Source: a bacterium
Lineage (GTDB): Bacteria; Sysuimicrobiota; Sysuimicrobiia; Sysuimicrobiales; Humicultoraceae
Reading direction: 5' to 3'
Length of the DNA: 64,000 nt
Assembly: GCA_036004665.1 (NCBI GenBank)
Contig: DASYRG010000029.1
Span: 12,753-76,752 of the forward strand
Shown here: piece after piece, positions 2,671 to 21,613 of the stretch
How the letters are laid out: each line of letters starts with the position of its first letter
Position numbering within the stretch: position 1 is the first letter of the stretch
The notes under the pieces: model-generated
The model's input: the letters and a program-made list of their open reading frames with translations, nothing else
Databases searched by the model: none
Told to the model about the DNA's origin: nothing
Program-made: the position numbers and the translations under genes

Positions 2671-2679
2671 GGTCTCTCC

Positions 2680-3807
2680 ATGACCGTCCCGCCCTGGTTC
2701 GTCGCCGGCGTCGTCGCGCTGGTCGTGACCATCGCCCTCACCCCTCCGCTGCGCCGTTTCGCCCGCCGCATCGGCGCGATCGACGTCCCCGGGGGGCGGC
2801 GCATCAACACGCGGCCGATGCCCCGACTGGGCGGGATCGCTATTTACGCGGGGTTCGTCTCGGCGCTGGCGGTGGCGATGGTGCTGACCCGGCCCGTGGA
2901 GTTGGTGCGCACGGCCGACGCGGTCTTCATTCAGATCACCCTCAGCCCGCGCACCGACCAGGCGCTGCTCGGGATCCTCCTCGGCGCGACCGTTCTCTTC
3001 CTGGCAGGGATCTGGGACGACGTGCGGGGGATGAATCCCGCGATCAAGTTCCTGCTGCAGGTCTCCGCGGCTGCCATCTTGATCCCCTTCGGGCTGACCA
3101 CCCGGTTTCTCACCCACCCGCTCACTGGAGCGGTCGTGTCATTGGGACGCTTCGGCGACCTCTTTACGGTGATCTGGGTCGTCGCCGTGGTGAACGCCAC
3201 CAATTTCATCGACGGCGTCGACGGGCTCGCCTCAGGGATCGCCGCCATCGCCGCCACGACGCTTTTCCTCACCGCCGGGGTGAAGGCGGACGTCATCTCC
3301 ATGGTGTTGGCCGCCTGTCTGGTAGGGAGCGCTCTGGGCTTCCTGCGCCACAATTTCAGCCCGGCGCGCATCATCATGGGCGACTCCGGCTCGATGTTCG
3401 TGGGATACGTCCTGGGCGGCATCTCGGTGATGGGACTCTACAAGTCCTTCGCCGCGCTCTCGCTGATCGTGCCTATCCTTGCCCTGGCCGTGCCGATCGT
3501 CGACACCGGCTACGCCATCGTGCGCCGCTTCCGCAACCACCGGCCGATCTATCTGCCCGACCGCGGACACCTGCACCACCGCCTCCTCGATCGCGGCCTC
3601 TCGCAGCGCCAGACCGTTCTGCTGCTCTACCTCGTGTCCGCCTTCTTCGGCGTGGGCGCCCTGGTCGTGGCCGGAGTCAACCGCAACGCCTCTCTGGTCA
3701 CCCTGGGCATCATCGCCGCTCTCCTGTATGTCGGCGCCCGCCGGATGAGGCTGTTCGACCGCAAGAACGGGGCACGCATGCCTGAGACGCCCGCGCCCCG
3801 GGCATAG
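2680..3807 (+). CDS. Polyprenyl-phosphate N-acetylhexosamine-1-phosphate transferase (MraY/WecA/TagO family, GT4)
   Basis: Multi-TM protein carrying the NATNFIDGVDGLASG signature of the MraY/WecA family. Followed directly by wecB. Confidence 0.8.
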   Translation: MTVPPWFVAGVVALVVTIALTPPLRRFARRIGAIDVPGGRRINTRPMPRLGGIAIYAGFVSALAVAMVLTRPVELVRTADAVFIQITLSPRTDQALLGILLGATVLFLAGIWDDVRGMNPAIKFLLQVSAAAILIPFGLTTRFLTHPLTGAVVSLGRFGDLFTVIWVVAVVNATNFIDGVDGLASGIAAIAATTLFLTAGVKADVISMVLAACLVGSALGFLRHNFSPARIIMGDSGSMFVGYVLGGISVMGLYKSFAALSLIVPILALAVPIVDTGYAIVRRFRNHRPIYLPDRGHLHHRLLDRGLSQRQTVLLLYLVSAFFGVGALVVAGVNRNASLVTLGIIAALLYVGARRMRLFDRKNGARMPETPAPRA

Positions 3808-5337: not shown

Positions 5338-5504
5338 CGCTTCCGTCACGGCCTCGGTACGTTTCCGGCACGCTTCCCGAGCCGGACCGATGCCCGGCGT
5401 AGGGGCGGGTGGGGTTGTCCCCGAACTCTTTTCACGGGTTCTGGTGTTCGCAGCGGGTCTCCCGTACACTTTCACTCGTGCTCAAGCAGACCGAGAGAGG
5501 GGCG

Positions 5505-7325
5505 ATGAGTGTGACGCGTGTGGTTCGTGTCCTCGTAGTCGTCGGGCTGGCGCTCGCGGTGGTGTTGCCGCAGTTCGGATCCACCAGCGCGCAGGAGGGA
5601 CTTCCGCCGATCATGCCGCTGGGCGAGATCAGGCCGGGGATGCGCGGCGTGGGGCGTACCACCGTGAAAGGTCAGACCCCCAGCGAGTTCCAGTTCGAAG
5701 TGGTCAGCATCCTCAAAGGTGGCGGGGGGATCATCAACGTCAAGAACCTGATCCTCATCCGCACCTTCGGGCCCCTGATGGAGCAGACCGGGGGGACCGC
5801 CGCCGGCATGTCGGGCAGCCCGGTGTTCATTAACGGCAGGCTCGTCGGCGCCAACAGCGCCTCTTACCGCGGGCAGACGCGCAAGGACCTCTCCCTGGTC
5901 ACGCCGATCGTGGAGATGCTGCCGCTCCTTGACCTCGCCAGCGGAACGGCGCAGCGAGCTGTCCCCCGCCCTACGGTCTACGTCCCGACGGCGCCGCTGA
6001 CTCTCGATGGGACGGCGGTGCAGCGGATCGTCGTCGCGCAGAACGATGAAGAGGCCCTGGCATTGCATGCCACCCGGCCCGGCACCCTCGCCTTTCGCCC
6101 CAACTCACCGCTCGCCCGCGTCAGCGGCCTCAGTGCGCGGGCCTACTCGATCCTGCAGCGGGCGATGCGCAAGGGAGAAGACCGGTTGGTGCTGCAGAGC
6201 GGCGGCGGGCAGGTCGATCTGGCCAGTGTGCCGGTGCGCGGCGGTTCTCCCGTCGGGATTTTGATGGTGACGGGGGACGTCGAGTTCGGCGGGCTCTGTA
6301 CCGCCACGCTGCGGGTCGGCAACAAGGTGCTGATCTGCGGTCACTCCTGGGATCACCTCGGCTCGGTGGCGTATGGCCTCACCTCCGCCGAGGTGGTCAC
6401 GGTCGTGCGCACGCTGGAGACGCCGTTCCTCGAATTTAACCTCGGGCGGCTGATCGGGCAGATCGACGAAGACCGCGGCCAGGGCATCCGGGGCATCGTC
6501 GGGCAGTTCCCGCGGATGTTCGTCGTGCGCGTGCAGGTCACCGACGCGGACACCGGCAAGAGCGTGACCAAGGTGATGCAGGTGGTGCGCCGCGCCGATC
6601 TGGCGCGCCTCTTCACGCCGCTGATCGCCCTCACCGCCGCCGAGAGCGGCCGCGACCAGGAGCGCGGCGAAGGCACCGCCCGGGTGAAGATGACCGTCCG
6701 GGCCGGCGGATTGGACAGCGCCATCACCCGGGAGAACATCTTCTACAGTTCCCAGGACGTGGCGCTGGCCTCCATCCTGGACATCTCCACGGCGATGCAG
6801 TTCCTCTTCTTCAACCCCTTCGCGCAGCTTGATCCGTTCGACCTGCGCGTGGAGGTAACGATCAGCAAGAAGCGCGAGACCGCGGCGATCACCAACGTGG
6901 TGGCGCAGACCCGCGAGGTTTCCCCCGGGGACGTGATCCGCGTCCGCATCACGGTGCGGCCCTACCAGGAGGAAACGCTCGCCTCGCAGGTGATCAGCGT
7001 CCCCGTACCGCGCAACTTCCCCAAGGGCCCGGCCGTGCTTGTGGTGGGCTCGGCGGGACTGAACACGGTAGGGTTTTCGCTGGACGACTTCCTGGTGCGC
7101 GATCTGCTCAGCGAGCAGCCGCCCTTCCCCGGCGACAGCCTGGAGGAGGCGGTGGACATCTTCCAGGGCTTCGGCACCAACGACCAGATCCTGATCCAGC
7201 TGGTGCCATTCGGCCTGCCGACGACCGGTCCGGACTTCACGAACTTCGACGTCTTTGCCGGCCGGCTGCTGGGCACCGACTGGGTGATCCAGGGGGAGTT
7301 CCGGATTCCGATTCTCGTGCGCTGA
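5505..7325 (+). CDS. Secreted SpoIVB (MEROPS S55)-like serine peptidase domain protein with a large C-terminal extension
   Basis: Signal peptide (VVRVLVVVGLALAVVLPQFGSTSAQ). The segment EFQFEVVS...LMEQTGGTAAGMSGSPVFINGRLVGA closely resembles the catalytic-Ser region of SpoIVB (…[12 protein letters not shown]…). A later GILMVTG...LICGHSWDH resembles the SpoIVB His region. Start set at the ATG with RBS GAGAGAGGGG. Confidence 0.6.
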   Translation: MSVTRVVRVLVVVGLALAVVLPQFGSTSAQEGLPPIMPLGEIRPGMRGVGRTTVKGQTPSEFQFEVVSILKGGGGIINVKNLILIRTFGPLMEQTGGTAAGMSGSPVFINGRLVGANSASYRGQTRKDLSLVTPIVEMLPLLDLASGTAQRAVPRPTVYVPTAPLTLDGTAVQRIVVAQNDEEALALHATRPGTLAFRPNSPLARVSGLSARAYSILQRAMRKGEDRLVLQSGGGQVDLASVPVRGGSPVGILMVTGDVEFGGLCTATLRVGNKVLICGHSWDHLGSVAYGLTSAEVVTVVRTLETPFLEFNLGRLIGQIDEDRGQGIRGIVGQFPRMFVVRVQVTDADTGKSVTKVMQVVRRADLARLFTPLIALTAAESGRDQERGEGTARVKMTVRAGGLDSAITRENIFYSSQDVALASILDISTAMQFLFFNPFAQLDPFDLRVEVTISKKRETAAITNVVAQTREVSPGDVIRVRITVRPYQEETLASQVISVPVPRNFPKGPAVLVVGSAGLNTVGFSLDDFLVRDLLSEQPPFPGDSLEEAVDIFQGFGTNDQILIQLVPFGLPTTGPDFTNFDVFAGRLLGTDWVIQGEFRIPILVR

Positions 7326-7475: not shown

Positions 7476-10400
7476 GTGCTGGTGTCCACGATGCGTGCAC
7501 GCCGGATCCTGCTGCTGCTCCTGATCGTCCTCGCCCTCGGACTCGGCGGAGGGGTCGCCGCCCTCTGGTTCTCTGGGACCCTGCACGGGCGCGTCCGTGA
7601 GCAGTTGGTGGCCTCCGCAGAAGCGAGCCTGGGCCGGGAGGTGGCGGTGGGGCGCCTGCGCGGGGATCCGCTGCGGGGCGTCGTCATCGACGACCTGGCG
7701 GTGGCGCGCACCGACCGGCTCAGCGAAGGCGCCATGATCACCGCAGAGCGGGCGGAGATCCGTTTCGACGCCCTGGCGTTGGGACGCGATCTCCTCACCG
7801 GCCGGGGCGTCCTGCCCAGCATCCGGCAGATCGTCCTCGTGTCGCCGACGCTGGCCCTCGAGGTCAGCCGGGAGGGGCGCTGGAACGTCGCTGACCTCCT
7901 TCGCCGCCAGCCCGCGGGCGGCGGCCCGAGCGTCTTTCGGCCTCTCGTGGAGATCCGAGCCGGCGCCGTCGATTTTTCTGACGCCTTCGGGCTGCGCCGT
8001 CCGTTCCTGGCGCGATTCAGCCAAGTCAACGGCACGGTCGATCTTCGCGCCTGGCCCCGCGTGCGTCTGGCGGCGGAGCTGGTCAGCCTGCGGGCGGATC
8101 GGGCCACGCCCCTGGTCGCCAGCGGAACCTATCTCGCCGGGATGGATGCGCTCGATCTCGCCGTCTCGGCGGAGCGCGCCCCCCTGGTCCAGTGGGGACC
8201 GTACTTCGTGCGCGTACCGGGGTTCGTGTTGGACGGCGGCTACGCAGATGCGGCCTTCCACGTGCTGCGGACGCGCTGGGGCGGCCGCCGGGCGCTGGAC
8301 TACCGGGGGACGCTGCGCCTCTATGACGCCGAGGCGCTTCTCCTGCCGCAACGGGCGCGGCTGCGGGACGCCCACGGCGTCATTGAAGTGGACAACCTGG
8401 GCTTGCGCACTGAGGCTCTCGCCCTGACGGTGGACGGATCGCCGCTGCGCCTGCGCGGGGAGATGATCAGCACGGCGCGGGGACGGCGCCTCGACCTGAC
8501 CGCCGTCTCGCAGGAGATGGATCTGACCACGCTGCGGCGGGTCCTCTTCCCGGGCTCCCAGCTCGCCCTCGTCGGGCGCACGGGGGGGGAGGTCCGCATC
8601 AGGGGCCCGATGCAGACGTTGACTGTGGAGGGCGCGCTCTACCACGCGCGCGGCGCCATCAACGCGCAGCCCTTCACCATTACCAGATCGGGCGTGACCG
8701 TCATTGGGAACCTGCTGGCCCTTGACGGCCTCTCGGCCACCGCCGGATCTGCGCGGGTCTCCGGTGAAGTCCGCCATCTCCTCGGCACCCCTGAACTGCT
8801 CGTCGCCGGCGAGGCGCACGATCTCAGCGCAGAGATCTGGCGGCGGGCTGGGATCCCCCTGAGCCTTCCCTTAGAGGGGCGGCTCGATGGGTCGGTGGCG
8901 CTCGGGCGGACCGGCGACAGCCTGATGGTCGAGGCGGCGCTGACCATGACCTCCGGACGAGCTGGCGGCCTTCGGGTGGACGGCATCCGCGCCGGGGGCT
9001 GGGTGGAGGACGGCGCGTTCTACTTCCCCTATCTCGTCGGCGCCCAGGGCACCTCCCAGGTCCACGCTGCGGGCGCCGTCGCCGAGTCGGGCCGGCTCGC
9101 CATGGACGTCGCCGGAACCGACCTGGATCTACGTCGGATCTCCGCGCTGGTCGGGCTGCGCCCCGCGATCTCCGGGCAGGCGGACGTGCGCGGGCGGCTG
9201 ACGGGTTCGCTGGCGGCCCCGGTCTTCGACGGTGACCTGGTCATGGGGAGGGGGAGCGCTGGGACGCTCGCGTTCGATGGGGCGGAGGGCCCTCTCCACC
9301 TCACCCGCCAGAGCGTATCAACCCCCGGTCTCCTGATCCGGGACGGCCCGGGGACCTACCGTCTCGCGGGGACGGCGCAGTGGGCCGCGGCCCACCCAGC
9401 CCTCGATCTGACTGTGGACGCCGAGGAGATCGCCGCCGCCGCACTGGCGCGTGACGCCGGGCTGGCCCTCGACCTGCGGGGGCGCCTCTCCGGCCGCCTG
9501 CACATCGGCGGCACACCGCGGCGGCCCAGCGTGACCGCGTCGCTGACGCTGCGTGAGGGGCGGCTGGAGGGGCAGCAGGTAGACGAGGCTACCGCCGCGT
9601 TCCGCTGGGTGGACGGCACCCTCCATCTCGACCGGGCGGAGGCGCGGGTCCGCGACTCGCTGATCCAGGCCAGTGGCACGGTACGCCGGGACGGGGAGAC
9701 GGAGATGACGATCTCGGCGCGGCAGTTCGATCTGCGGCATCTCACCATTCTGCCCCCTCAACTGCTGGCGGCCAGCGGAAAGATCGACCTCAACGGACGC
9801 GTCAGTGGGAAAGGGCTCAACCGCGTGGCAGGGGTGCTCTCCTCGAGTGACCTCACGCTCAACGGGCAGCGCTTCGACCAGGCGGAAGGTCTCGTCCGCT
9901 GGGCGCAGGGGCGGCTGCACCTGGAGCCGCTGACCCTGCGGCAGGGGCCGGGGGAATATACCATCACCGGCACGCTGGAGCTGCAGGGGCCGGTGAGGTT
10001 CGATCTGCAGGGCGAGGTGGCCGGCGGCCGCCTCTCCACGCTGCTGGCCCTGGGAGGTGTACGGCCGCCGTTTCCTCTGGACGGGCGGCTCGACGGGGTG
10101 GTCCGGGTCGAAGGCACCCCAGCGAGGCCCTCGGCCTCGCTGGATGCCCGGCTGTCGCAGGGACGCCTGGGCGACCACCCCATCGAGGAGGGGCAGGCGG
10201 TCCTCAGCGCGCGGGACGACGTCATCACCGTCGAACGGCTGCGGCTGCGTTCAGGATCGGGGGAGATCGCGGCGCAGGGGCGCGTTGCCCTCCGCGGCTC
10301 CAGCGCCCTCGAGGTGAGCGGCTCCAACCTCAACCTGGACCTGCTCCGTCCCCTCCTCGGCCTGCGGCGTCCGCTGCGCGGCACGCTGAGCTTCACCACG

Positions 10401-11867
10401 CAGTTCAGCGGGGCACTCAGCGATCCCGAGATCGGGCTGTCGCTGGAGCTGCGCGACGGCGGCGTCGAGGGGTTGACATTCGACTCGCTCGTGGCCAACG
10501 CGTTTTACCAGGACGGCCAGTTCCACATCGAGCAGGCGCTCCTCACTGAGGGCACCAACCGGGTCAAAGGGACGGGCACGATTCCCTTCAACCCGGCGCT
10601 GCGCTCGCTGGCGGAGACCCGGCCCATGCGCTTCGAGATCTCGCTGGTGGAAGCCAACCTCGGCCTGCTCACGCTGCTGACCCCCCAGGTGCAGGAGGCG
10701 TCGGGCCGGATGGAAGGGCAGGTCACCCTCAGCGGCACCCCGCGCGCTCCCGAGATGTCCGGGCGGCTGATGGTCCGCGGCGGCCGGATCAAACTGCGCA
10801 GCGTCGTCACGCCGCTGGAAGAGATTGCGGCCGACCTCATCTTCCGCGAGGACCGGCTGACGTTGGACAGCTTCAGCACGCGCATGGGCAGCGGGACGGT
10901 CTCGGCCACGGGCGCGGTGGCCGTGGCCGACTTCCGCCCCGCACGCATCGAGCGGTTGTCCGTGCGCGCGCGCGATGCGCGGCTGGAGGTCAAGCCGCTC
11001 TTTGCCGGCCAGGTCGATGCCGACCTCACCATCGCCGGGTCACTGCTGGACGCCGCCGCTCCCCCCGAGATCGCCGGAACCCTCACCCTCAAGCGGGGGG
11101 ATCTGGTGATCAGCGCGGCGCCCGGGGGGTCGGGGTGGCGGGGACCCAACTTCCGCCTCCACGACGTGCGCGTGCGCGGCGGGGAGGAACTGGCCGTCCA
11201 CCTCGGCCGGGTGCGCATCGACCTGCAAGAAGGGGAGGTCATCGCCGGCGGGACGCTGCGCCAGCCCACCCTCGATGGGGAGTGGGTGGCGGAGCGCGGG
11301 ACGATGACCGTCTTCGGTCAGACGTTCATCCTGCGGGAGGGGCGGGCGCGCTTCCTCCCCCAACTGGGGTTGACGCCCATTGTCTCGCTGGAAGCCGAGA
11401 CGCAGTTGGGCGCCACGCGGGTCTTCATCGAGGTGCATCAGGCGTTGCCGCACGAGATGGCGGACCGGATGATTCTGCGGTCCGATCCCCCGCTCAGCCG
11501 TGAGGAGATCGCCCAGCTCCTGGCGCAGCACTCCGGGCTGGCGCATCTCGCCGCCGGGGACGTCCAGTCGGCGCTGCGGGTCGAGCTCTCCCGCGCGCTC
11601 TTCGGCGAGATCGGGCAGACGGTGGCGCGCGCCCTGGGGCTGACCGAGTTCGTCATCCAGTACGATTTCGCTCAGCCGCTGCAGCTGCGCATCGGGCGGC
11701 TGCTCGTGCGCGATCTCTACCTGACCCTGACGACGGTCTTCGAGGCGCCCCGCACCCGCTTCGTCTGGGCGCTGGAATGGCGCTTCGCCCGCAACCTCAT
11801 GTTCACGCTGAGCCTGGACAATGTTGGGCGCTCCGACGCGCTGCTGCTCTATCAGATCCGGTTCTAA
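7476..11867 (+). CDS. tamB: Translocation and assembly module protein TamB (AsmA-like, DUF490 C-terminus), 1463 aa
   Basis: Single N-terminal TM segment, very long beta-rich body and the characteristic DUF490 C-terminus (...LQLRIGRLLVRDLYLTLTTVFEAPRTRFVWALEWRF...LLLYQIRF). Lies upstream of bamA as in diderm Firmicutes. Confidence 0.8.
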   Translation: MLVSTMRARRILLLLLIVLALGLGGGVAALWFSGTLHGRVREQLVASAEASLGREVAVGRLRGDPLRGVVIDDLAVARTDRLSEGAMITAERAEIRFDALALGRDLLTGRGVLPSIRQIVLVSPTLALEVSREGRWNVADLLRRQPAGGGPSVFRPLVEIRAGAVDFSDAFGLRRPFLARFSQVNGTVDLRAWPRVRLAAELVSLRADRATPLVASGTYLAGMDALDLAVSAERAPLVQWGPYFVRVPGFVLDGGYADAAFHVLRTRWGGRRALDYRGTLRLYDAEALLLPQRARLRDAHGVIEVDNLGLRTEALALTVDGSPLRLRGEMISTARGRRLDLTAVSQEMDLTTLRRVLFPGSQLALVGRTGGEVRIRGPMQTLTVEGALYHARGAINAQPFTITRSGVTVIGNLLALDGLSATAGSARVSGEVRHLLGTPELLVAGEAHDLSAEIWRRAGIPLSLPLEGRLDGSVALGRTGDSLMVEAALTMTSGRAGGLRVDGIRAGGWVEDGAFYFPYLVGAQGTSQVHAAGAVAESGRLAMDVAGTDLDLRRISALVGLRPAISGQADVRGRLTGSLAAPVFDGDLVMGRGSAGTLAFDGAEGPLHLTRQSVSTPGLLIRDGPGTYRLAGTAQWAAAHPALDLTVDAEEIAAAALARDAGLALDLRGRLSGRLHIGGTPRRPSVTASLTLREGRLEGQQVDEATAAFRWVDGTLHLDRAEARVRDSLIQASGTVRRDGETEMTISARQFDLRHLTILPPQLLAASGKIDLNGRVSGKGLNRVAGVLSSSDLTLNGQRFDQAEGLVRWAQGRLHLEPLTLRQGPGEYTITGTLELQGPVRFDLQGEVAGGRLSTLLALGGVRPPFPLDGRLDGVVRVEGTPARPSASLDARLSQGRLGDHPIEEGQAVLSARDDVITVERLRLRSGSGEIAAQGRVALRGSSALEVSGSNLNLDLLRPLLGLRRPLRGTLSFTTQFSGALSDPEIGLSLELRDGGVEGLTFDSLVANAFYQDGQFHIEQALLTEGTNRVKGTGTIPFNPALRSLAETRPMRFEISLVEANLGLLTLLTPQVQEASGRMEGQVTLSGTPRAPEMSGRLMVRGGRIKLRSVVTPLEEIAADLIFREDRLTLDSFSTRMGSGTVSATGAVAVADFRPARIERLSVRARDARLEVKPLFAGQVDADLTIAGSLLDAAAPPEIAGTLTLKRGDLVISAAPGGSGWRGPNFRLHDVRVRGGEELAVHLGRVRIDLQEGEVIAGGTLRQPTLDGEWVAERGTMTVFGQTFILREGRARFLPQLGLTPIVSLEAETQLGATRVFIEVHQALPHEMADRMILRSDPPLSREEIAQLLAQHSGLAHLAAGDVQSALRVELSRALFGEIGQTVARALGLTEFVIQYDFAQPLQLRIGRLLVRDLYLTLTTVFEAPRTRFVWALEWRFARNLMFTLSLDNVGRSDALLLYQIRF

Positions 11868-11980
11868 CGCGACCGAGCGCGCCGCGCAGGATTCGGCGGA
11901 GCCTGAACGAACACGAGACAGGATGCGCCGACCGCGCCTGATCGTTCCCGACGTCGACCCCCGCGAGGTGAGGCCGCGCC

Positions 11981-12607
11981 ATGTTCGCCGACTACCTGCG
12001 TGAACTCCAGCGGGTGCGCCTGCTCACCCCCGTAGAGGAAGCGGAGTGCTGGCGGCGCTTCCGCGGCGGCGGCGACGCCGAGAGTCGCCTGCGCCTGATC
12101 GAAGCCTACCAGCCCCTCGTCTTCAAGCTGGCGATGCAGCTGCAGCTCCCCCGGCCGAGGGTGATGGACTTCATCCAGGAAGGCACCGTCGGCCTGATCG
12201 AAGCGGTGGAGCGGTTCGATCCCACGCGTCGGGTCCGCTTCAGCACCTTCGCTGCCTACCGCATCCGGGGGCGAATGCTCAACGCCCTGGGGCGCCGCGG
12301 TCCGGAGCTCTCACTGGACCAACTCGTCGCCGACGAACTGGCGGCCGCCCTGGGCGACCTCGAGGCGGAGACGGCGCTGGCGCGTGTGGAGGACCGCGTC
12401 CTCGTCTCCCAGGTGGGGGCGGCGATCGCCGAGCTGCCTGAGCGGGAACGGGAGATTCTGCGAGCCTTCCTGATGCGCCGGGAGCCCCGCGCGGTCGCCC
12501 GGGGGCTGCGGATCAGCCTCTCCCATTTCTACCGGTTGCAGAACCAGGCGATCGCCCGTGTGCGCGCCATGTTGCGGGGGGCCGCCCCGGGTACCGGATC
12601 GCCCTGA
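11981..12607 (+). CDS. Sigma-70 family RNA polymerase sigma factor (group 3/4-like)
   Basis: Region 2 (LVFKLAMQL...DFIQEGTVGLIEAVERFDP...FSTFAAYRIRG) and a region 4 helix-turn-helix (ISLSHFYRLQNQAIARVRA). RBS GAGGTGAGG. Confidence 0.75.
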   Translation: MFADYLRELQRVRLLTPVEEAECWRRFRGGGDAESRLRLIEAYQPLVFKLAMQLQLPRPRVMDFIQEGTVGLIEAVERFDPTRRVRFSTFAAYRIRGRMLNALGRRGPELSLDQLVADELAAALGDLEAETALARVEDRVLVSQVGAAIAELPEREREILRAFLMRREPRAVARGLRISLSHFYRLQNQAIARVRAMLRGAAPGTGSP

Positions 12608-12687
12608 GCGTCTCCGCGGCGCGCGGCGGCGGCATGCGAGAGAGGCAGGCGGGGCGGGGATAGTAACTGAGGGAAGGCGGTATCGAA

Positions 12688-13311
12688 GTGGAGGAGGGAG
12701 TCCTGGTGTCGACTGACGTCAAGACCGCAAGGCGGCGCGATCAGCTCAGCCACCACATCGGGTTTGCCGAACGCTGGCTGACCCGGGCCAAAGGGGAGGT
12801 CGCCCGCGGTGATCTGGGCCGGGGCCAGCTCACGCTGCTGCTGGCCGAGGCGGAGATCCATCATGCCCGCGCGGCGGAGGGGGCGCCCGCCACGGCGCCG
12901 CGTCCGCACCCGGTGACGATGATCGTGGGCACGACCCTCCTGGCCGCCGCGCTCCTGTCCGGACTTGCCGCGGCGCTACCGCGGAGCACCGTGACTTCCG
13001 TGCTACCCTCCTCCCCTCCCATGATCCGGTTCAAGCAGCCGGTCGGCAGCACCCTTGCCCTGATCCCGATGGTCGCGGCGCCTCAGACCCCGACGCAGAT
13101 GCTCTCTGCTCCGGCGCGCGGGCCCGCCCTCGCTGGCGCCCCTCGAGCAGCGCCGCGGCGCTCGCCGGTCCGAACAGCCGTGCCGTCCCGGCCCGTGTCC
13201 ATTCCCGCGCCGCCGCTACCGGCCGCGGCGCCCCTGGTCCTCGTCTCTGACGGCGACTTGATCGACCTGGTCCTCGCAGCGGAGCGCTCGCTGCGCGGGG
13301 AGAAGCGGTAG
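12688..13311 (+). CDS. Single-pass membrane protein; possible anti-sigma factor
   Basis: Immediately downstream of the sigma factor. N-terminal cytoplasmic segment, one TM helix (MIVGTTLLAAALLSGLAAAL) and a Pro/Ala-rich extracytoplasmic tail. No recognisable catalytic motifs. Confidence 0.35.
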   Translation: MEEGVLVSTDVKTARRRDQLSHHIGFAERWLTRAKGEVARGDLGRGQLTLLLAEAEIHHARAAEGAPATAPRPHPVTMIVGTTLLAAALLSGLAAALPRSTVTSVLPSSPPMIRFKQPVGSTLALIPMVAAPQTPTQMLSAPARGPALAGAPRAAPRRSPVRTAVPSRPVSIPAPPLPAAAPLVLVSDGDLIDLVLAAERSLRGEKR

Positions 13312-13326
13312 GCGGTTTCACCAGGG

Positions 13327-15300
13327 ATGAAGATCGTCCTCCGCCGGCGCCGCTGGACCTGTGCCTGCACGTGGCTGGTCGTCATCCTTGCCCTCGCCCT
13401 CGGCACCGCTCAGCCGCCGCTCTTCGCTCAGACGCCGACTCCCACTCCGACGTCCTCGCCCACGCCGGCGCCCACTCCCCTGCCCGCACCGACCGCGACG
13501 CCGGTACCGGCTCCAGCCGCGCCCACCGCATCGCCGGCACCGGGAGCCACGCCGACCACCGCCCCGAGCCCTACCCCGACCGCGCGACCCACCCCGACGG
13601 CGACCCCGGCCGCGCCGCGTCCAGCAGCGACCGCCACGCCGGCGCAGCGTGTGATCGCCGTCGAGGTCGTCGGCAACAAGCAGATCGCCCTCGAGCGCAT
13701 CACCGAGGTGATCACAACGAAGGTGGGGGAGGTCCTCGATCCGGAGAAGGTCCGGCGGGATCTCGAGGCCATCCTGCAGCTGGGGTGGTTCGCGGACGTG
13801 TCGATCCGGGTGGAAACCGAACCGACGGGCGTGCGCGTGGTCTTTCTCATCGTGGAGAACCCCGTGATCAGCACGGTGGCAGTCGAGGGCAACACCGTCA
13901 TTGCGACGGAGGCGCTCATCGGCGCGCTGAAGGTCCCCCTTGGCCAGGTGTTGAACGCCCGCCAGCTCCGCGAGGGCATCAGGGCGGTCGAGCAGCTCTA
14001 TGAGAGCCGGGGCTACGTGCTGGCCCGGGTCACCGACGCCACGGTGGAGCCGGCCGGGGATGGCCGGCTGGTCATCCGGATCGCCGAAGGACGCGTGGAG
14101 GACATCGTCTTCCGCGGGCTCACCAAGACGAGGCCGCGCGTGGCCCAACGCTACCTGCGGATGAAGCGCGGCGACGTCTTCAACGTCGGGGCGATGAACG
14201 CCGATTTGCAGCGACTCTTCGACAGCGGACTCTTCGAGAACGTCCAGGCGCGCCCCCGCCCGGGCTCGGGACCGGACACCGTGGTCATCGAGATCGAGGT
14301 CAAAGAGGCCCAGACCGGGCGCATCGGCTTCGGCATCGGGTACAGCAGCGCCAGAGGGCTGATCGGACAGATCGAGTACGGCGAGCGGAACTGGCGCGGG
14401 ACGGGACAGTCCATCTCGCTGCGCATCGAGCGCGGGATCACCCGCGGGACCCTGGGGATCTCCAGCAAGCTCAACTTCCAGCTGAACTACCGGGAACCGT
14501 TCCTCGACGACCGGCCCACGACACTGGAGATCGGTCTCTTCGGGCTGTCGTCCATCCAATCGGAGGTGATCAGCAGGGAGACGACGTCACGCTTCGAGCT
14601 GGAGCGCACCGGCAGCTTCCTCGAGGTGGGCAGGCCGCTCGATGCGGTGACGACGCTCTCGCTGCGCGTGCGCTCGGAGCTGGCGGTGATCACGGCGCTG
14701 CCCCTCGATTCCAACAGCGAGGATTGTCCCTGCCCCCTCCCCAGCCTCTACAGCCCGGGCCGGACGATCTCGCTGCTGACCTCCGCCGTCAGGGAGACGC
14801 GGGACAGCCGGATCAACCCCACCCGCGGGAGCCGCCAGCTGCTGTCGCTGGAGGTGGGGTTGCCGGTGCTGGGTGGAGAGTTCTCCTTCCAGAAATACTT
14901 CGGCGAGTACATCCAGTACTTCTCCGTGGGGGCGGGCCACGTGGCCGCCCGCGCGCAGTTGGGGCTGGGCAGCGGCTTCATCCCCTTCCAGGAGTGGTAC
15001 GTCCTGGGCGGACCGACGACGCTGCGCGGGGCGCAGGCCGGCCAGTTCCGCGGCACCAGTATGGCGATGGTGAACGTGGAGTACCGCCATCCCCTCGGCG
15101 GCATCGCCTCGTTCCTCAAGGAATTCCAAGGCATCGTGTTCGTCGACGTGGGGGCGGCGCCGATCAGCGGAGGAGGCAACTTCTCAACCAGTTATGGCAT
15201 CGGCACCTCGTTCAACTCGCCCCTCGGCGTGATCCGGTTCGATCTGGCCTTCGGGCCGGGGGGAACCCAGACGTGGATCAACCTGGGCCAGCCCTTCTAA
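13327..15300 (+). CDS. bamA: Outer membrane protein assembly factor BamA (Omp85) with N-terminal Pro/Thr-rich linker
   Basis: Signal peptide, about 75 aa of PT-rich low complexity, POTRA-like repeats (VIAVEVVGNKQIALERI...VSIRVETEPTGVRVVFLIVENPVI...) and a C-terminal beta-barrel ending ...INLGQPF. Confidence 0.85.
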   Translation: MKIVLRRRRWTCACTWLVVILALALGTAQPPLFAQTPTPTPTSSPTPAPTPLPAPTATPVPAPAAPTASPAPGATPTTAPSPTPTARPTPTATPAAPRPAATATPAQRVIAVEVVGNKQIALERITEVITTKVGEVLDPEKVRRDLEAILQLGWFADVSIRVETEPTGVRVVFLIVENPVISTVAVEGNTVIATEALIGALKVPLGQVLNARQLREGIRAVEQLYESRGYVLARVTDATVEPAGDGRLVIRIAEGRVEDIVFRGLTKTRPRVAQRYLRMKRGDVFNVGAMNADLQRLFDSGLFENVQARPRPGSGPDTVVIEIEVKEAQTGRIGFGIGYSSARGLIGQIEYGERNWRGTGQSISLRIERGITRGTLGISSKLNFQLNYREPFLDDRPTTLEIGLFGLSSIQSEVISRETTSRFELERTGSFLEVGRPLDAVTTLSLRVRSELAVITALPLDSNSEDCPCPLPSLYSPGRTISLLTSAVRETRDSRINPTRGSRQLLSLEVGLPVLGGEFSFQKYFGEYIQYFSVGAGHVAARAQLGLGSGFIPFQEWYVLGGPTTLRGAQAGQFRGTSMAMVNVEYRHPLGGIASFLKEFQGIVFVDVGAAPISGGGNFSTSYGIGTSFNSPLGVIRFDLAFGPGGTQTWINLGQPF

Positions 15301-15311
15301 GCCGCCGCCGG

Positions 15312-16595
15312 CTGGCCGGGGGAACGGCCGCCGCGGCGCGGGGTCTGGTCCTGCTGCTCGCCCTGAGCGGGCCCGCCAAGGCGGCCGCCGTCGTGGTGCA
15401 GAGCGTCGACGTTCGCTTGGCCGTCGAGGGCGCCGGCCCGCCCCCGCTGGTGCGCGCCCGGCTGCAGGAAACGGTGGCGACGGTGGCCCAGCGGCTGCTG
15501 ATCGGCCGGGCGGTCGAGCAGCTGCGCCCCGCCCAGGCGCAGCTGCAGACGACGCTGGCGACTGTGGTCGACCGCGTCATCACCGGCTATTCGGTCACGG
15601 AGACGCGGCTCGAAGTCGGAGCGGCCACGGTCGTCGCCGTGCGGCTGCGCCCCGACCCCCCGGTGATCGCCGGCGTGGAGATTCTCCCCAAGACGGTGGT
15701 GCATCCGGCGGTCGCCCCGCTCGTGCTGGCACCGATCGATCACGAGGTCGCGCCGGCCGTGCGGACCATGCTGATGGGGCTGCCGGTGGAAGCGCTGGAC
15801 TGGGCAGGGCCGCTGATCGCCGAGGAGGCCCGCCGCGTCTCTGAATCGCTGCTGCCCGGGTTTGCCGCGGTGGTGCGGGTGCGGGGAGGGACGGCGGCCC
15901 GGGTGGAGATCGATCTGGCGGCCCGGGAGGGTCGGGTGGTGCGTGACATTGGAGTGCGTTTCCGGTCCTCCTCCATCCCGACGCTCCTGCTGGAAACCCA
16001 CGCGCCTGCGGTGACCTCGCTGGCCGAACCGGTACGGGGTCTGCCCGTCGTCTTTGCCGAGGGACACCGGGCAGACCTGGAGCGGCTGCTGGGCGAACGC
16101 CTGCGGGCCTACCCACCGGTCGGCCAGTACCACGTCGTCGTTCGACCGGTGCTGCGGGTGGCCGAGACCACCTACGTCACAGTGCTGGCCGATTCGCTGG
16201 CGTGGATGGGACGGGTCGAGGCCGTGGTGAACCTGGGCTCCCGCGCCCCGGCGCCGGAACTCCGGCTGCACCTCGGTCGTCTGTTTGATCGGTTCGAGCT
16301 CTTCGCCGAGGCGGCGATTCCCCCCAACACGTTCGCCGGCCGCTACGACCTGGGGGTGCGCTATCGGGTCACCGACGCGCTCGACCTGGGGAGCAACGTC
16401 GCGCTGAACGCGGTCGCAGTGACCCCCTGGGCAATTTACCGCCTCTCGCCAGACCTGAGCGTCCGGGCGGCGTATGAGATTCACCAGCGGCGCTTCGAAG
16501 GCGGCGTCCGCTACCGGTTCCACGAGTTCCTCTCGGGTGAACTGGTGGGGACCTCGGGAGGAGAGGTGTGGCTGCAGGTAATAAGCAACCTGTGA
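15312..16595 (+). CDS. Secreted hypothetical protein (~430 aa) between bamA and skp; start codon uncertain
   Basis: Long open frame starting immediately after the bamA stop, with a signal-like segment (RGLVLLLALSGPAKAAA). No ATG/GTG/TTG between the bamA stop and the signal peptide; a CTG at ~15312 is the only candidate. The C-terminal third has alternating-hydrophobic strands suggestive of beta structure. Confidence 0.45.
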   Translation: MAGGTAAAARGLVLLLALSGPAKAAAVVVQSVDVRLAVEGAGPPPLVRARLQETVATVAQRLLIGRAVEQLRPAQAQLQTTLATVVDRVITGYSVTETRLEVGAATVVAVRLRPDPPVIAGVEILPKTVVHPAVAPLVLAPIDHEVAPAVRTMLMGLPVEALDWAGPLIAEEARRVSESLLPGFAAVVRVRGGTAARVEIDLAAREGRVVRDIGVRFRSSSIPTLLLETHAPAVTSLAEPVRGLPVVFAEGHRADLERLLGERLRAYPPVGQYHVVVRPVLRVAETTYVTVLADSLAWMGRVEAVVNLGSRAPAPELRLHLGRLFDRFELFAEAAIPPNTFAGRYDLGVRYRVTDALDLGSNVALNAVAVTPWAIYRLSPDLSVRAAYEIHQRRFEGGVRYRFHEFLSGELVGTSGGEVWLQVISNL

Positions 16596-16639
16596 GCGTC
16601 CCTCCTGCGGCGCGCGGGGTATCCCCGCCCTTGATTGAC

Positions 16640-16670
16640 GGTGGCGTGTACAATGAGAGGGTTGTGTGAT
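16640..16670 (+). promoter_or_regulatory. Weak candidate promoter upstream of the skp-lpx-lpt operon (TACAAT -10-like element)
   Basis: Lower-GC intergenic stretch ...cttgattgacggtggcgtgtacaatgagag... upstream of the TTG start with RBS GAGGAGGAG. The -35 spacing is not canonical. Confidence 0.25.
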
Positions 16671-16714
16671 CGACAGCGAGAGATCATCTTGATATTCCTG
16701 AGGAGGAGAACATC

Positions 16715-17200
16715 TTGAAGGTCCTGCGCACCCGCATCCGGCAGAACCCACGCAAGGCCGGCCTCGTCGCCGTGGGCGGCATCATCGCGGTCCTCGTCGT
16801 CGTCGCGGCGGTACTCCTGGCCAGCCAGGGCGGAGCGCCGGTGTTCGGTCAGAGCTTCACCATCGGCTTCGTTGACATGCAGCGCGCCGTGGACGCGCAC
16901 CCGCGCAAGGCCGCCAGCGAGCGGGCCCTCCAGGAGTTCTTCCAGGCGAAGCAGCGGGAGTTCACGACGCGCAGCAAAGGGCTGAGCGTCGAGCAGCGTC
17001 AGTTGCTCGACCGGGAACTGCAGCAGCAGGTCGTCGCGAAGCGTCAGGAGTTGCTGGGCGGCATTGAGAAGGAGCTCCGCACCGCCGTCGAGGATGTCGC
17101 CCGCGCCCAGGGCGTCTCCATCGTCCTGGAGCGCGCCGTGGTGCTCTTCGGCGGCGTGGACCTGACCGACCAGGTCATCACGAAGGTGACCGGCAAGTAG
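16715..17200 (+). CDS. skp: OmpH/Skp-family periplasmic chaperone
   Basis: 161 aa: signal anchor, coiled-coil body, Skp-like pattern (FVDMQRAVDAHPRKAASERALQEF...GVSIVLERAVVLFGGVDLTDQVI). Confidence 0.7.
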   Translation: MKVLRTRIRQNPRKAGLVAVGGIIAVLVVVAAVLLASQGGAPVFGQSFTIGFVDMQRAVDAHPRKAASERALQEFFQAKQREFTTRSKGLSVEQRQLLDRELQQQVVAKRQELLGGIEKELRTAVEDVARAQGVSIVLERAVVLFGGVDLTDQVITKVTGK

Positions 17201-17204
17201 GGAC

Positions 17205-18308
17205 ATGACCCGGGCCGGCGGACTCCTCCTGCTGATGGCCCTGGCCGTCAGCGGCTGTGGGGGACGGGACTCGACCGCGGTTCCCGCACCCAGCCTCACG
17301 CCGGCGCTGACCCGCATCGCCGTCGTTGACCTGGATGCCCTCGTGCGGGCCCACCGCAGCTGGCCGGAGGTCGACGCCATCGCCAAGAAACTCACGGCGG
17401 TCGAGGCCGCGCTGGCCGCGCCGCCGGCGATCCCGCCGATCCTCCAACGCGAGGTGCAGGCTCGGCTGCGGGCCCAGTCCCGCCGGCTGGAGCGCGAATT
17501 CCAGGCGGAGATCGCCGCCCTGAAGAAGCGGCAGACCGAACGGATCGTCCTCTACGCCGCTCGCGTCCGCGTGGAGCAGCAGGCGGCGCTGGCGAAGCTG
17601 CGGGCGCAGGTCGACGCGGAACTCCAGCGGGTCATCGCCGAGCGCGTCCAGGCGGTGCGCGAGGAGCTGCGCCGGTATGAACTGCAGGTCTTCGATGAGT
17701 ACCGCTTCTCCATCGCCAACCTGCGGCTGAAGGCGGATGTCGTGGGCGTCGCCACCGAGGAGGAGCAGCGCCTGCTGATCGAAGAGCTGGATCGCGTGCT
17801 CCAGGAACGCGACGCCAAGGTGCGCGCGCGGGCGGAGGTGCTCGACGCCGTCGTGGTGGACTTCCGGCGGGCCCGCGAGGCAGAGGCCAACGCCACGCTC
17901 GCACGCGCCCGCGTTGCCGCCGAGGCCCTGACGAAACGCCTCATCCTCGCAAAGGAGCGGGAGATCCAGGCGGAAACCACCCGGATCGGCAAAGCCAGGG
18001 AGGCGGAATTCCGGCGCCGGTTATCCGCGTTTCGCCGCCGCCTCACAGGGATCGAGGAAAGCCAGATGGGCACCGCTCAGCGCCGCTTTGTCGAGGGGCT
18101 GCGCCAGCGCGAGCAGCAGCTGCTGGCGCAACGGCAGGCCCTCACCGAGCAGCGGCTGCGGCTGGAGGACACTATCCTGGCCGACGTGAAGATCGAGGTG
18201 GCGGGGATCGCGGCCGCCCGGGGGCTGGACGTCGTGCTCACCCGGCTGATCGCCAGGGTGAGCGGTGAGGACATCACGCAGGAGGTCCTGGCCCGCCTGA
18301 AGCGGTAG
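17205..18308 (+). CDS. OmpH/Skp-like lipoprotein, long coiled-coil paralogue (367 aa)
   Basis: Lipoprotein signal (LLLLMALAVSGCGG), extended Arg/Glu-rich coiled coil and a Skp-like C-terminus (GLDVVLTRLIARVSGEDITQEVLARL). Confidence 0.55.
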   Translation: MTRAGGLLLLMALAVSGCGGRDSTAVPAPSLTPALTRIAVVDLDALVRAHRSWPEVDAIAKKLTAVEAALAAPPAIPPILQREVQARLRAQSRRLEREFQAEIAALKKRQTERIVLYAARVRVEQQAALAKLRAQVDAELQRVIAERVQAVREELRRYELQVFDEYRFSIANLRLKADVVGVATEEEQRLLIEELDRVLQERDAKVRARAEVLDAVVVDFRRAREAEANATLARARVAAEALTKRLILAKEREIQAETTRIGKAREAEFRRRLSAFRRRLTGIEESQMGTAQRRFVEGLRQREQQLLAQRQALTEQRLRLEDTILADVKIEVAGIAAARGLDVVLTRLIARVSGEDITQEVLARLKR

Positions 18309-18309
18309 C

Positions 18310-18738
18310 ATGCGCAGCCGTCGCCCCGTCTCGGCACTCATCCTGGTGGTCGTCTGCTCCTTCGCTCTGTCCGCGTGCGGCTCCGCCGCCCTGGCTCTTG
18401 TGGACAGCGATCGCGTGCTCAACGAGAGCGTGCGGGCGCTCTCCTTCCAGAGAGAACTCGACGCCCGCGAGAAGGCGATGGCCTTCGACCTTCAATTGCT
18501 CAGCAGCCAGCTGCCGGCCGCCGACCTGGAGGCGCGCCGCAATCAATACCTCAGAGAACTGCAGCAGATGAAGAGCGATTTCGAAGCGCGCTTGAATAAG
18601 GAGATCCGCGAGATGGTCATCCAGATCGTCCGGGAACGCGGCCTCCGCGCCGCCGTCATCGTGAAGGAACCGGTGCTCTACTCGGTGCCGGGCCGCACCG
18701 TGGACATCACCGACGAGGTGATCGCCAAACTCAAGTGA
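18310..18738 (+). CDS. OmpH/Skp-like lipoprotein, short paralogue (142 aa)
   Basis: Lipobox-type signal (FALSACGS), then ...[27 protein letters not shown]...[25 protein letters not shown]. Confidence 0.55.
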
Positions 18739-19811
18739 TCCCCATCCGCCTCGGCGAGCTGGCGACCCGCCTCGGCGGAACCGTAGCGGGCGACCCCATG
18801 GTCGAGGTGACGGGGGTGGGGACGCCGGAGCACGCGGCCCCGGGAGATATCGTCCTGGCCGCAGATGCCGGCGCGCTCGAGCGGGCGGAGGCCGGAAGGG
18901 CGGGGGCGGGAGAGGCGGCGGCTGTGCTGATCCCCGAGGACCTGACCCCGCGGCGGCTGCCGGCGATCCGCTCGGGCAACGTCCGCCTGGCCTTTGCGCG
19001 TCTCCTCGAGCACTTCTCCCCGCCGCCCTCGCGCGCCCCGGGCGTCCATTCCAGCGCGGTCATCAGCCCCGACGCCCTGGTGGCGCCCGACGCCAGCGTC
19101 GGCCCGCTGGTCGTACTCGGGGCGCGGGTCCGCGTGGGCGCGCGCTCGACCGTGCAGGCGGCCGTGGTGGTCGGAGACGACGTCAGCATCGGCGCCGACT
19201 GCCTGATCTATCCCCACGTCACCATCCGCGAGGACACGATCGTGGGCGACCGCGTCATCCTCCATCCGGGCGTGGTCTTGGGCAGCGATGGGTTTGGGTA
19301 TGCTCGAGGGGAGTCGGGGCCGGTGAAGATCCCCCATCTCGGGCGGGTGGTCATCGAGGACGACGTGGAAATCGGGGCGAACACGACGATCGATCGGGGC
19401 ACGCTGGGTGAGACACGCGTGGGGCGGGCCACCAAAGTCGACAACCTGGTGCAGATCGCACACAACGTGCGCATCGGCCGCGCCGTGCTGATTGTGGGGC
19501 AGGTGGGAATCGCCGGCAGCGTCACCATCGGCGACGGCGCCACCCTGGCGGGGCAGGCGGGCGTGCCCGATCACCTCACCGTCGGGCCGGGGGCGACGCT
19601 CCTTGCCCGAGCGGTGCCGACGAAGGACGTGCCGGCCGGAGCCGTACTCTCGGGATTCCCCGCCCGACCGCACCGGGAAGAACTGCGTCTGCAGGCGCTG
19701 CTGCGACGGCTCCCGGACCTGGTCGCGCGGAGGGACGACTCCCCGCGCCGGAGACGACGCACCGCAAAGAAGAAGGATGGCCCCGAGCGGGCGGGGAAGG
19801 GGCAGCGGTGA
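18735..19811 (+). CDS. lpxD: UDP-3-O-(3-hydroxyacyl)glucosamine N-acyltransferase
   Basis: Left-handed beta-helix hexapeptide repeats plus a GFGY...[24 protein letters not shown] core. Basic Arg/Lys-rich C-terminal tail. GTGA overlap with the preceding skp paralogue. Confidence 0.85.
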
Positions 19812-21613
19812 CGGTGCGTCGCGCCCTGGTGTCGGGGGCGGCGCTCGCCTGCCTCCTGGCGCTCACCGCGATCCCGGGCGCGGGAGCCGGCGGACCGCCT
19901 CTGCAGGTGGTGATCCAGCCCGGGGGGCTGCCGGTCGCCACGGTGATCGTCCAGGATGTGGCGGTGCTCAGACTCCGCGGACCGGACGCCAGGACGCGCG
20001 CCACCGAGGTCGCGCGCCGCCTGGGCGAGATCCTGGCGGACGGGGCCCACCCGCTCGTGGTCGGCGTGGCCGCTCGAGGGAAGGCCGCCGACCTGTTGCT
20101 GAACGGACGGCGCCTTGTCACGGTGGATGCGACCGCGGCGCGGGGCGCGGGGTCGGTCCCGCTCGCCCTCGCCCGCGTCTGGGCGGATCAGCTCCGAGAA
20201 GCCCTCTCCCGCAACACGGTCACCCTGACCCCCGCGCTGCTCGTGCTACGCCCGGGGGAACGTGCCGCCGCGTCGGTCACTGCCTTCCTGCCGGGGCCCG
20301 TGACGATCGGCCCTCACGATGAGCGAGTGGCGGTGGCCCAGATCGTGGGCGGAGTGGTCTCCGTGGAGGCGCGGGGGATCGGCTCGACCGCGGTGCCGGT
20401 GATCGTGGGGGCGGGGCAGGCCCCGCTGACCGTGGTGGTGCGCCGGCCCGCCGGGGTGATCCCTCAGACCGTGACGGTGCGGGTGACCGGCGAGCTGAGC
20501 GCGGCCCTCGTTCGTGAGGCGGTGCAGCGGAAGATCGAGCAGAGCGTCCTGCGAGAACCCGGAGCATCCCTCGCAGTGGGAGCGATCCACGTCGATGAGA
20601 CGGCGCTGGCCGGCCCGGATGCTCCCGAGATGCTCGTCCCCGTCACCGTGCGCAGTCCCTATGCGCTGCCGGTCGACGGGGTGATCCGCGTGACCCTCGT
20701 GCGCGAGCAGGTCGAGATCGCAGACCCGGCGCTCCTGCTGGTGTCGAACCGTCCGGAAGCGGTGCTGGCCGACGGCGTGCTCTTTGAGGAGGTGGTGGAC
20801 GCCCGGCGTCCCACGCGGCTGCTCTACCATCACCAGAACGGATCCGCCGACCACTCCCGGGTGCTGACCGTCGCGCTGACCAACCGCGCCGACCATCCGG
20901 CCGCCCTCCTCCTGATCAGCGGGCTGGCCGGTCCATCTCCTGATTCCCTCTTCGTCGGATCGGCGGCCACGGGACGCTTCCTGCAGAACCTGGCGGCGGG
21001 GCGAGGGTATGTCCTGGAGATGCCTGCGCGTACAACCTACGCCTTTGTGGCGCAGACGATGGCTCCGCTGCAGCTGGTCTCCGGCATCCTCCAGTTTCAG
21101 CTTCTGGAGGGTGAGGAGCTCGAGATACGCATCGCCGCCCGCCTGCCCTGGCTGCTCGACCGCACGGTGGCGATTCCGGTCAATCAGATCGCCTACCCCC
21201 ATCCCAAAGGGGTCTTCGCCGATCCCACCATCGCGGTGGTCCGCACCGTGGACCTCCTGACCCCTACCCACCTTGTCGATCTGGGGTGGGTCGCCGGCCT
21301 GCGCGACCTGCGGACGGACGAACGCCTCGTCGGCGACTACGGTGTGGTCTACCGGCTCACCGTCACTGCGGCCAACCCTTCCCCGATCGAACTGCGCGCC
21401 GATCTGGTGGCGACCGCCGCCGGAGGAGCGGCCCGAGGGGTCTTTCTCATCGACGGCCGCCTCGTGGAGATGGCCATCTACAAGGGGTTTGAGGAGCGAA
21501 CGCTGGCGACGCTGGCGGTGCCGCCGGGGGAGCGGCTGATCACGCAGATCCTGACGATGCCGACGGCTGGGTCCTACTATCCCGTGCGCCTCAGCCTGCG
21601 ACCGCAGCCGTGA
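19808..21613 (+). CDS. Secreted hypothetical protein (601 aa), translationally coupled between lpxD and lpxC
   Basis: Signal peptide ([23 protein letters not shown]). No recognisable catalytic motif. The GTG start overlaps the lpxD stop and the stop overlaps the lpxC GTG start (GTGA at both ends). Confidence 0.55.

Follow-up and report, generated by a model that had tools for sequence, protein, structure and literature searches.

The closest described counterpart of the gene examined here is sonA of Acetonema longum, whose 426-aa product (F7NM22) was named in February 2026 (Nat Commun 17:2756; PMC13018214). SonA was defined by three POTRA domains followed by a 10-stranded barrel and by its place in a sonB-bamA-sonA-skp1 operon, and this cluster was found to be syntenic across 36 surveyed Negativicutes, with only V. 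parvula and A. fermentans lacking sonA and sonB (PMC13018214). The A. longum protein is co-expressed with BamA and, once purified, was protected from protease in liposomes at 30 °C without the β-barrel assembly machinery (BAM); the published survey was limited to Negativicutes and framed around spore germination (PMC13018214). Here, we analyzed a stretch of 64,000 nucleotides (the window) from contig DASYRG010000029.1 of a bacterium of the phylum Sysuimicrobiota, also known as CSP1-3, and focused on the gene at 15273..16595, which lies directly after bamA and before the first of three skp-like genes. Judged by its sequence, this gene is the CSP1-3 orthologue of sonA, with a counterpart of SonB encoded alongside, and we consider both the sonA identity and the predicted architecture of the product to be highly probable. 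All features given below lie on the forward (+) strand unless stated otherwise.

Homology to SonA and predicted architecture

The gene was assigned to sonA because of profile homology, the same gene order and the homology of the accompanying sonB. An hhalign comparison of the CSP1-3 family with the Negativicutes family aligned the two end to end with a probability of 100% (E 2.9e-75, 410 columns), and in BLASTP the window protein matched UFO1_4234, which occupies the sonA position in Pelosinus sp. UFO1, with 29% identity (E 7e-49). The 207-aa product of the sonB-like gene (12688..13311) likewise matched the 185-aa protein at the sonB position of Pelosinus from end to end, at 29% identity and E 2e-10. 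Most numerous among the distant relatives are Negativicutes (Sporomusa malonica, S. carbonis, Pelosinus sp. UFO1, Dendrosporobacter and Propionispora), the taxonomy of these distant members being taken from cluster look-ups and a Negativicutes-only alignment. Of the features that characterize SonA, three POTRA units, ten C-terminal strands, a position between bamA and skp1 with sonB upstream, and homology to the Negativicutes proteins were found in the window.

Compared with A. longum SonA, the window protein shares the predicted succession of three POTRA domains and a 10-stranded barrel and a similar length (426 vs 440 aa), it has a putative Sec-type signal peptide, and its gene has the same setting, between bamA and skp1 and with sonB upstream of bamA. 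It differs from SonA of Negativicutes in belonging to another phylum and in sharing only 25-30% identity, a value obtained by comparison with the Negativicutes proteins at that position. The start of the window gene overlaps bamA by 28 nt, whereas in Pelosinus the two genes are separated by a gap of 146 nt, and while A. longum SonA comes from a spore former, the window lineage is not described as spore-forming.

The protein was modelled with AlphaFold2 from a 34-sequence alignment (mean pLDDT 90.3, pTM 0.75), and secondary structure was assigned by DSSP. The precursor has 440 aa, somewhat more than the ~430 aa estimated in an earlier first-pass annotation of this DNA, and removal of a predicted Sec signal peptide (residues 1-37, 15273..15383; likely cleavage site AKA/A, called by eye) would leave a mature protein of ~403 aa. 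Residues 17-31 form a low-confidence helix in the model, and N-termini resembling signal peptides are present throughout the SonA family. The mature part is predicted to consist of three β-α-α-β-β units with pLDDT >90, which is the topology of POTRA domains, followed by ten short strands at residues 311-439. POTRA-like domain 1 (residues 44-127, 15402..15653) carries a DRVxxGY motif, domain 2 (residues 134-217, 15672..15923) a GLPVxAxxWA motif with the invariant W177, and domain 3 (residues 225-308, 15945..16196) the motifs RSxSIP and RGLPVxF with the invariant P258.

The remainder of the protein is a predicted 10-stranded transmembrane β-barrel (residues 311-440, 16203..16592) that ends in the motif WLxxISNL. 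The conserved ending in the family is W-L-R-L-I-G-N-L/F, and 99 of 100 family representatives have a hydrophobic last residue (L, F, I, M, W or V). When the C-terminal 135 residues were modelled alone, ten strands were again obtained, with a pLDDT of 96.3. Family-averaged Kyte-Doolittle hydropathy alternates strictly on all ten strands, with a mean of ~+2 on a hydrophobic face and about -1.5 to -2 on a polar, charged one, and aromatic residues account for 11% of the barrel region vs 3% of the POTRA region. The first-pass annotation had read amphipathic β-strand character in the C-terminal third and had named an outer-membrane β-barrel among its suggestions; the strand count and the hydropathy of the family agree with the former, and structure prediction favours the latter.

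A Foldseek search of the full model against the PDB returned Omp85-family structures for all of the top 50 matches (BamA, TamA, Toc75 and the BamA POTRA1-4 structure 6j09; E 6e-12 to 1e-6). The best of them was E. coli BamA (E 6e-12), and TamA of both P. aeruginosa and E. coli was also matched. The predicted protein has the domain order and the POTRA fold of the BamA/Omp85 superfamily (PF01103 and PF07244), including its N-terminal POTRA domains, but in place of the 16-stranded PF01103 barrel it has one of ten strands, six fewer. TM-scores of the full model were low (0.15-0.24), which is to be expected of a multi-domain protein whose barrel is smaller. At the level of sequence, Pfam and NCBIfam scans gave no match at E <= 0.1, a comparison by hhalign of the SonA profile, built from 74 sequences, with a 35-sequence alignment of the cognate BamA family gave a probability of ~1%, and a PDB sequence search with the same 74-sequence profile returned no Omp85 protein and only a designed transmembrane barrel (E 2.8e-4). 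The lack of profile similarity to BamA means that the resemblance to Omp85 proteins is one of fold only, and the window encodes a complete BamA next to SonA.

For the barrel modelled alone, the best match in the PDB was the designed 10-stranded protein TMB10_163 (8uzl; TM 0.62), followed by porins, KdgM/NanC, OmpA and Ail. TMB10_163, the closest solved structure, also has ten short strands and minimal loops; it is artificial, and the resemblance indicates only that the domain would be a minimal closed transmembrane barrel.

A word-indexed search recovered 81 homologues, none with a Pfam domain, of which 80 share 43-100% identity with the window protein; with a broader alignment as query it gave largely the same CSP1-3 proteins, owing to the word index. 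A profile search run exhaustively over 1.84 billion cluster representatives recovered 301 matches at E <= 1e-3, with 121 at E <= 1e-30, mostly of 410-450 aa and aligned over their full length. Named organisms with relatives are the 'Armatimonadetes bacterium CSP1-3' metagenome-assembled genome (MAG), ANGP1 MAGs, Candidatus Fervidifonticultor, Geohabitans and Thermofontivivens; the MAGs of Geohabitans tengchongensis and Fervidifonticultor tertius belong to Sysuimicrobiota (= CSP1-3; PMC11604079).

The genes of the window cluster follow the order tamB, sigma, sonB, bamA, sonA, three skp and lpxD. Among CSP1-3 loci with upstream sequence, sonA is immediately 3' of bamA in 40 of 40, and the whole order is kept in these loci wherever the contig reaches. 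Pelosinus has the window order as well (tamB, sigma70, the 185-aa protein, bamA, UFO1_4234, three skp and lpxD), and four other clades show tamB, sigma, a protein of ~145-234 aa, bamA, sonA and skp. In Thermovirga lienii (Synergistota; L043; Tlie_0546) the order is sigma, a 193-aa protein, bamA, sonA, lpxD, lpxC, fabZ and lpxA, with tamB and skp not adjacent, and one further clade (L048) has bamA, sonA and skp only. What is invariant across Pelosinus, Thermovirga and the five further clades is that sonA directly follows bamA, with a gap of -28 to about 200 nt, and the two genes stay together even in loci where tamB, sigma, sonB or skp is not a neighbour (L043, L048). Synteny across diderm Firmicutes, which the first-pass annotation had suggested as a check, is seen in Negativicutes (Pelosinus), and it reaches beyond Firmicutes into CSP1-3 and Synergistota.

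Two of the homologues carry other taxonomic labels at NCBI. P0081, a SonA homologue at 35% identity (L045, JBLNDK010000045.1, 364..1659), is labelled 'Methanocella sp.'; because its gene is flanked by an Omp85 fragment on one side and by OmpH and LpxD genes on the other, we take the contig to be bacterial and mis-binned into an archaeal MAG. P0253, nominally from a 'Bacteroidota bacterium', is encoded in a cluster of tamB, sigma, sonB, bamA, sonA and skp.

Possible roles beside BamA

Since bamA is the only universal neighbour of sonA, we favour a role for SonA as a helper of BamA. SonA would be exported by Sec and then inserted into the outer membrane, where its small barrel with very short loops would serve as a membrane anchor rather than forming a sizeable pore or acting as an insertase of the Omp85 type. 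The POTRA domains, three in number, would project into the periplasm and could dock a partner or an unfolded client by β-augmentation, and SonA would probably be made in step with BamA by way of the overlapping or closely spaced genes. Under these premises, SonA would most likely assist the BamA machinery of lineages without BamB-E, as an accessory or scaffold that is not a lipoprotein. It may be analogous, as a BamA helper in the periplasm, to BamB-E of Proteobacteria, but those are lipoproteins, whereas SonA is a predicted integral β-barrel with a putative type I signal peptide and without homology to them: no Cys was found in the precursor N-terminus, and the Pfam and NCBIfam scans gave no match to BamB, BamC, BamD or BamE. 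Of the earlier suggestion of a BAM/TAM accessory factor, the location in a BAM/TAM gene cluster holds, and the role itself is a reasonable working hypothesis. We put forward the function as a BamA partner or scaffold tentatively, as possible rather than probable, while the explanation as a whole, a sonA orthologue in a conserved outer-membrane-biogenesis cluster with an inferred BamA-partner mechanism, is likely to be correct.

Several points weigh against this reading. Membership in the SonA family was established through sonA-position proteins of other Sporomusaceae and not through F7NM22 itself, which was absent from the named matches, and SonA of CSP1-3 is known from sequence and models alone. 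The signal peptide, which the first-pass annotation had also recognized, was judged by inspection of the n, h and c regions (RRR; GLVLLLALSG; AKA/AA) of the N-terminus MDQPGPALLSRRRLAGGTAAAARGLVLLLALSGPAKA/AAVV, and closure of the barrel around a polar lumen is deduced from the strand count, the fold matches and the hydropathy alternation. In A. longum, anti-BamA co-immunoprecipitation with cross-linking revealed no stable BamA partner (PMC13018214), which makes a stable BAM subunit less plausible. Furthermore, BamA and TamB are present in V. parvula and A. fermentans, where SonA and SonB are absent (PMC13018214), so that BAM can evidently function without SonA in some diderms.

TamA (E. coli, 4c00; P. 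aeruginosa, 8us1/8us3) resembles SonA in having three periplasmic POTRA domains and an outer-membrane barrel and in the location of its gene near tamB. SonA could accordingly be imagined as the outer-membrane docking partner of TamB, a TamA analogue where TamB is present and TamA is not, with the POTRA domains binding the TamB C-terminus and the barrel anchoring a trans-envelope bridge for lipid or protein transport. The number of POTRA domains is the same, TamA gave the best TM-scores among the full-length fold matches (0.20-0.24 vs 0.15-0.19 for BamA), and 'possible interactions with TamB' have been suggested (PMC13018214). In addition, the cluster includes tamB in CSP1-3, in Pelosinus and in four other clades; in the window, the tamB-like gene (7476..11867, 1463 aa) occupies this conserved position and matches NF047952 TamB with E 9e-22, below the curated cutoff. 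However, Thermovirga (L043) and L048 keep bamA-sonA with no tamB within 7-8 kb, while V. parvula keeps tamB-bamA-skp without sonA. TamA has a laterally gated Omp85 barrel of 16 strands, whereas the window protein has a minimal barrel of ten strands, and it shows no Pfam Omp85/POTRA match and no sequence-profile similarity to TamA. On this evidence, we regard docking to TamB as unlikely.

Another alternative concerns the two genes that precede bamA. The sigma-70-family factor (11981..12607, 208 aa; Sigma70_r2 and r4 in Pfam, TIGR02937 with E 1e-23) is encoded immediately before sonB in the window, in Pelosinus and Thermovirga and in four other clades, and a protein gene following a sigma-factor gene is an arrangement typical of anti-sigma factors. 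The sigma gene lies between tamB and sonB in CSP1-3, Pelosinus and the four other clades, and in Thermovirga the sigma-sonB pair stands without an adjacent tamB. SonA might then be an outer-membrane sensor that signals through a bitopic, anti-sigma-like SonB in the inner membrane to the adjacent sigma factor, and such a relay would tune expression of the bamA/outer-membrane-biogenesis cluster, loosely like FecA-FecR-FecI or RseA/sigma-E.

The family alignment of SonB, drawn from seven clades, is compatible with that topology. SonB is predicted to be bitopic, with a conserved and presumably cytoplasmic N-terminal helical region (HxxxAxxWLxRAxExY...ELxLxLAxAE), one transmembrane segment, a Pro/Glu-rich variable linker, a periplasmic tail and a short C-terminal motif (..L...A...LRG). 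No conserved Cys or lipobox was found in this alignment, and in this the window counterpart is unlike SonB as published, which was described as an outer-membrane lipoprotein (PMC13018214). Sigma, sonB and sonA are also jointly missing from the V. parvula cluster, in which tamB (Vpar_0526), bamA (0527) and skp (0528-30) are consecutive (PMC5491611). Nevertheless, domain searches of SonB found no known domain and no similarity to any anti-sigma domain, and L048 has bamA-sonA-skp without adjacent sigma and sonB. A contact between SonA and SonB would be hypothetical. The proposal draws on gene order, bitopic topology and joint loss in Veillonella, and a sensor relay of this kind seems improbable to us.

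Finally, SonA could be a self-inserting 'pioneer' that helps to turn the outer spore membrane into an outer membrane at germination, as modelled for A. longum. There, SonA is upregulated at germination and shows the protease protection in liposomes at 30 °C without BAM mentioned above, but the presence of SonA is uncorrelated with sporulation ability (PMC13018214). The family, with the same synteny, is moreover conserved in CSP1-3 and Synergistota. To our knowledge, sporulation is not a feature of the available descriptions of either phylum. With this distribution, a role specific to sporulation or germination cannot be the general function of SonA, and we consider the pioneer model very improbable as an explanation of the family.

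Gene start, overlap with bamA and coding character

The first-pass annotation described a long coding-like frame across 15300..16595 without a canonical start codon and raised a sequencing frameshift or a programmed coupling with bamA as explanations. The frame is coding-like, as described: it is open from 14724 to 16595, i.e. already 5' of the bamA stop (15298-15300), and its GC3 is 0.861, vs 0.898 for bamA and 0.883 for tamB. It is also correct that no ATG, GTG or TTG, only CTGs, occurs from the bamA stop to the hydrophobic segment. An in-frame GTG is nonetheless present inside the end of bamA (15273..15275), its first G being the last base of a BamA Thr codon and its TG the start of the BamA Trp codon (acG TGg), and a Shine-Dalgarno-like GGGGGGAA run (15258..15265) has its last base 8 nt 5' of this codon.

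The coding sequence that begins at this GTG (15273..16595, TGA stop included) shares 28 nt with bamA (15273..15300), which encode both the BamA C-terminus (..TWINLGQPF and stop) and the SonA N-terminus (MDQPGPALL). Its 440-aa translation corresponds to the NCBI entry 'hypothetical protein VGR25_05520' (P0001; 100% identity and coverage), and the same 28-nt overlap was present in an independent assembly and gene call (L050: bamA 500..2473, sonA 2446..3768). The GTG at the overlap site is kept in the near relatives L001, L002, L004 and L005, and the orthologues of L001, L002 and L005 have V at the start site as well, while L034 and L040 have CTG at the overlap site and a GTG of their own 3' of the bamA stop instead. 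At the position of the GGGGGGAA run, relatives carry GGAGG or GGGAGG. We infer that this run serves as the ribosome-binding site and that the overlap couples translation of bamA and sonA.

Because the conserved GTG start, the NCBI annotation and the independent gene call agree, this is an ordinary overlapping gene pair with no start-codon anomaly, frameshift or recoding. Initiation at the CTG at 15312 was considered and is unneeded given the conserved GTG at 15273. A frameshift or fusion with bamA was also rejected, since BamA is complete, the junction is the same in the independent assembly (L050) and the genes of relatives are separate. The bamA gene itself (13327..15300, 657 aa) is intact, with three POTRA matches and an Omp85 barrel whose Pfam match extends to residue 642 of 657, and the protein ends in ...WINLGQPF. 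A promoter and terminator scan that covered 11800..17000 found no sigma-70 consensus promoter and no terminator-like site between bamA, the sonA-like gene and skp1; the sole terminator-like site in this interval lies inside a coding sequence, and sites of this kind occur there at the rate expected by chance.

Pairwise comparisons gave dN/dS values of 0.16 against the L001 orthologue (80% identical), 0.22 against L002 and 0.50 against L005, and the sonA gene is thus under purifying selection. Full-length homologues down to ~20% identity are found in several phyla, each time as a separate gene, and the first-pass view of a genuine, secreted protein, which proves to be conserved at the protein level, is borne out. 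A 484-aa open reading frame on the opposite strand (15297..16751, -) spans the whole sonA gene; with a GC3 of 0.759, vs 0.861 in the sense frame, it was rejected as a gene and attributed to high GC content. Long spurious frames such as this one do arise in high-GC DNA (about 70%), but the probability that the sonA frame is itself a chance product of base composition, or a stretch that a frameshift has split from the 3' end of bamA or another gene, is practically negligible in view of its GC3 (0.86 vs 0.76 antisense), the dN/dS of 0.16, the separate full-length homologues in several phyla, the confident fold prediction, the completeness of BamA and the identical junction in an independent assembly.

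Neighbouring genes and breadth of the family

Directly 3' of sonA lie three OmpH/Skp-like genes (PF03938; 16715..17200, 17205..18308 and 18310..18738). The second and third (17205..18308 and 18310..18738) encode lipobox-like signal peptides (…LAVSGCGG and …FALSACGS) and could represent Skp in lipoprotein form; at 367 aa, the second is unusually long, and its OmpH match is weak. BamA contains, at residues ~35-105 (13327..13650), a ~70-residue low-complexity linker rich in Pro, Thr and Ala that leads from the signal peptide to the first POTRA domain, with a local GC of 0.78. Within the lpxD-lpxC interval, a 601-aa open reading frame (19808..21613) has no Pfam or NCBIfam match and is kept at this place in most CSP1-3 loci, with 41-76% identity. 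Just 5' of tamB, a 638-aa open reading frame (5409..7325) shows a weak partial match to the SpoIVB peptidase S55 domain (Pfam E 1e-7) and scores 35 bits against TIGR02860, for which the cutoff is 305, a curious similarity for a lineage not described as spore-forming. The window also encodes lpxD, lpxC, lpxA, lpxB, lptC, lptA, lptB and lptF/G, and with these lpx and lpt genes a complete tool-kit for a lipopolysaccharide outer membrane is encoded. No mention of the cell envelope was found in two papers on CSP1-3.

The family itself was described earlier in 2026 (PMC13018214), which supersedes the initial view of an unknown, novel protein, and the host is a member of CSP1-3/Sysuimicrobiota, not a diderm Firmicute as had been assumed. 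What is new is a SonA member in a new phylum: finding SonA in CSP1-3, Synergistota and other clades goes beyond the published Negativicutes survey, and the breadth of the family appears wider than published. This also removes an apparent annotation anomaly from the window, which holds neither a frameshift nor a non-canonical start, and a broad SonA alignment is now at hand for the design of experiments.

The presence of sonA, sonB and sigma beside bamA in both CSP1-3 and Synergistota means that the module is neither Firmicute- nor sporulation-specific. With considerable reserve, we suggest that sigma-SonB-BamA-SonA might be an ancestral module that spans phyla in those diderms that have this tamB-bamA-skp-lpx cluster (Negativicutes, CSP1-3/Sysuimicrobiota, Synergistota and further clades). 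SonA would then be either the long-missing non-lipoprotein partner of BamA or the outer-membrane component through which a SonB/sigma relay controls outer-membrane biogenesis. A recent review holds that BamA functions in Terrabacteria without lipoprotein subunits (Chem Rev 2026, PMC13067283), and if SonA had either of these roles, the view that BamA works alone in Terrabacteria would be wrong. The wider spread of the family makes SonA a stronger candidate for a general factor of outer-membrane biogenesis.

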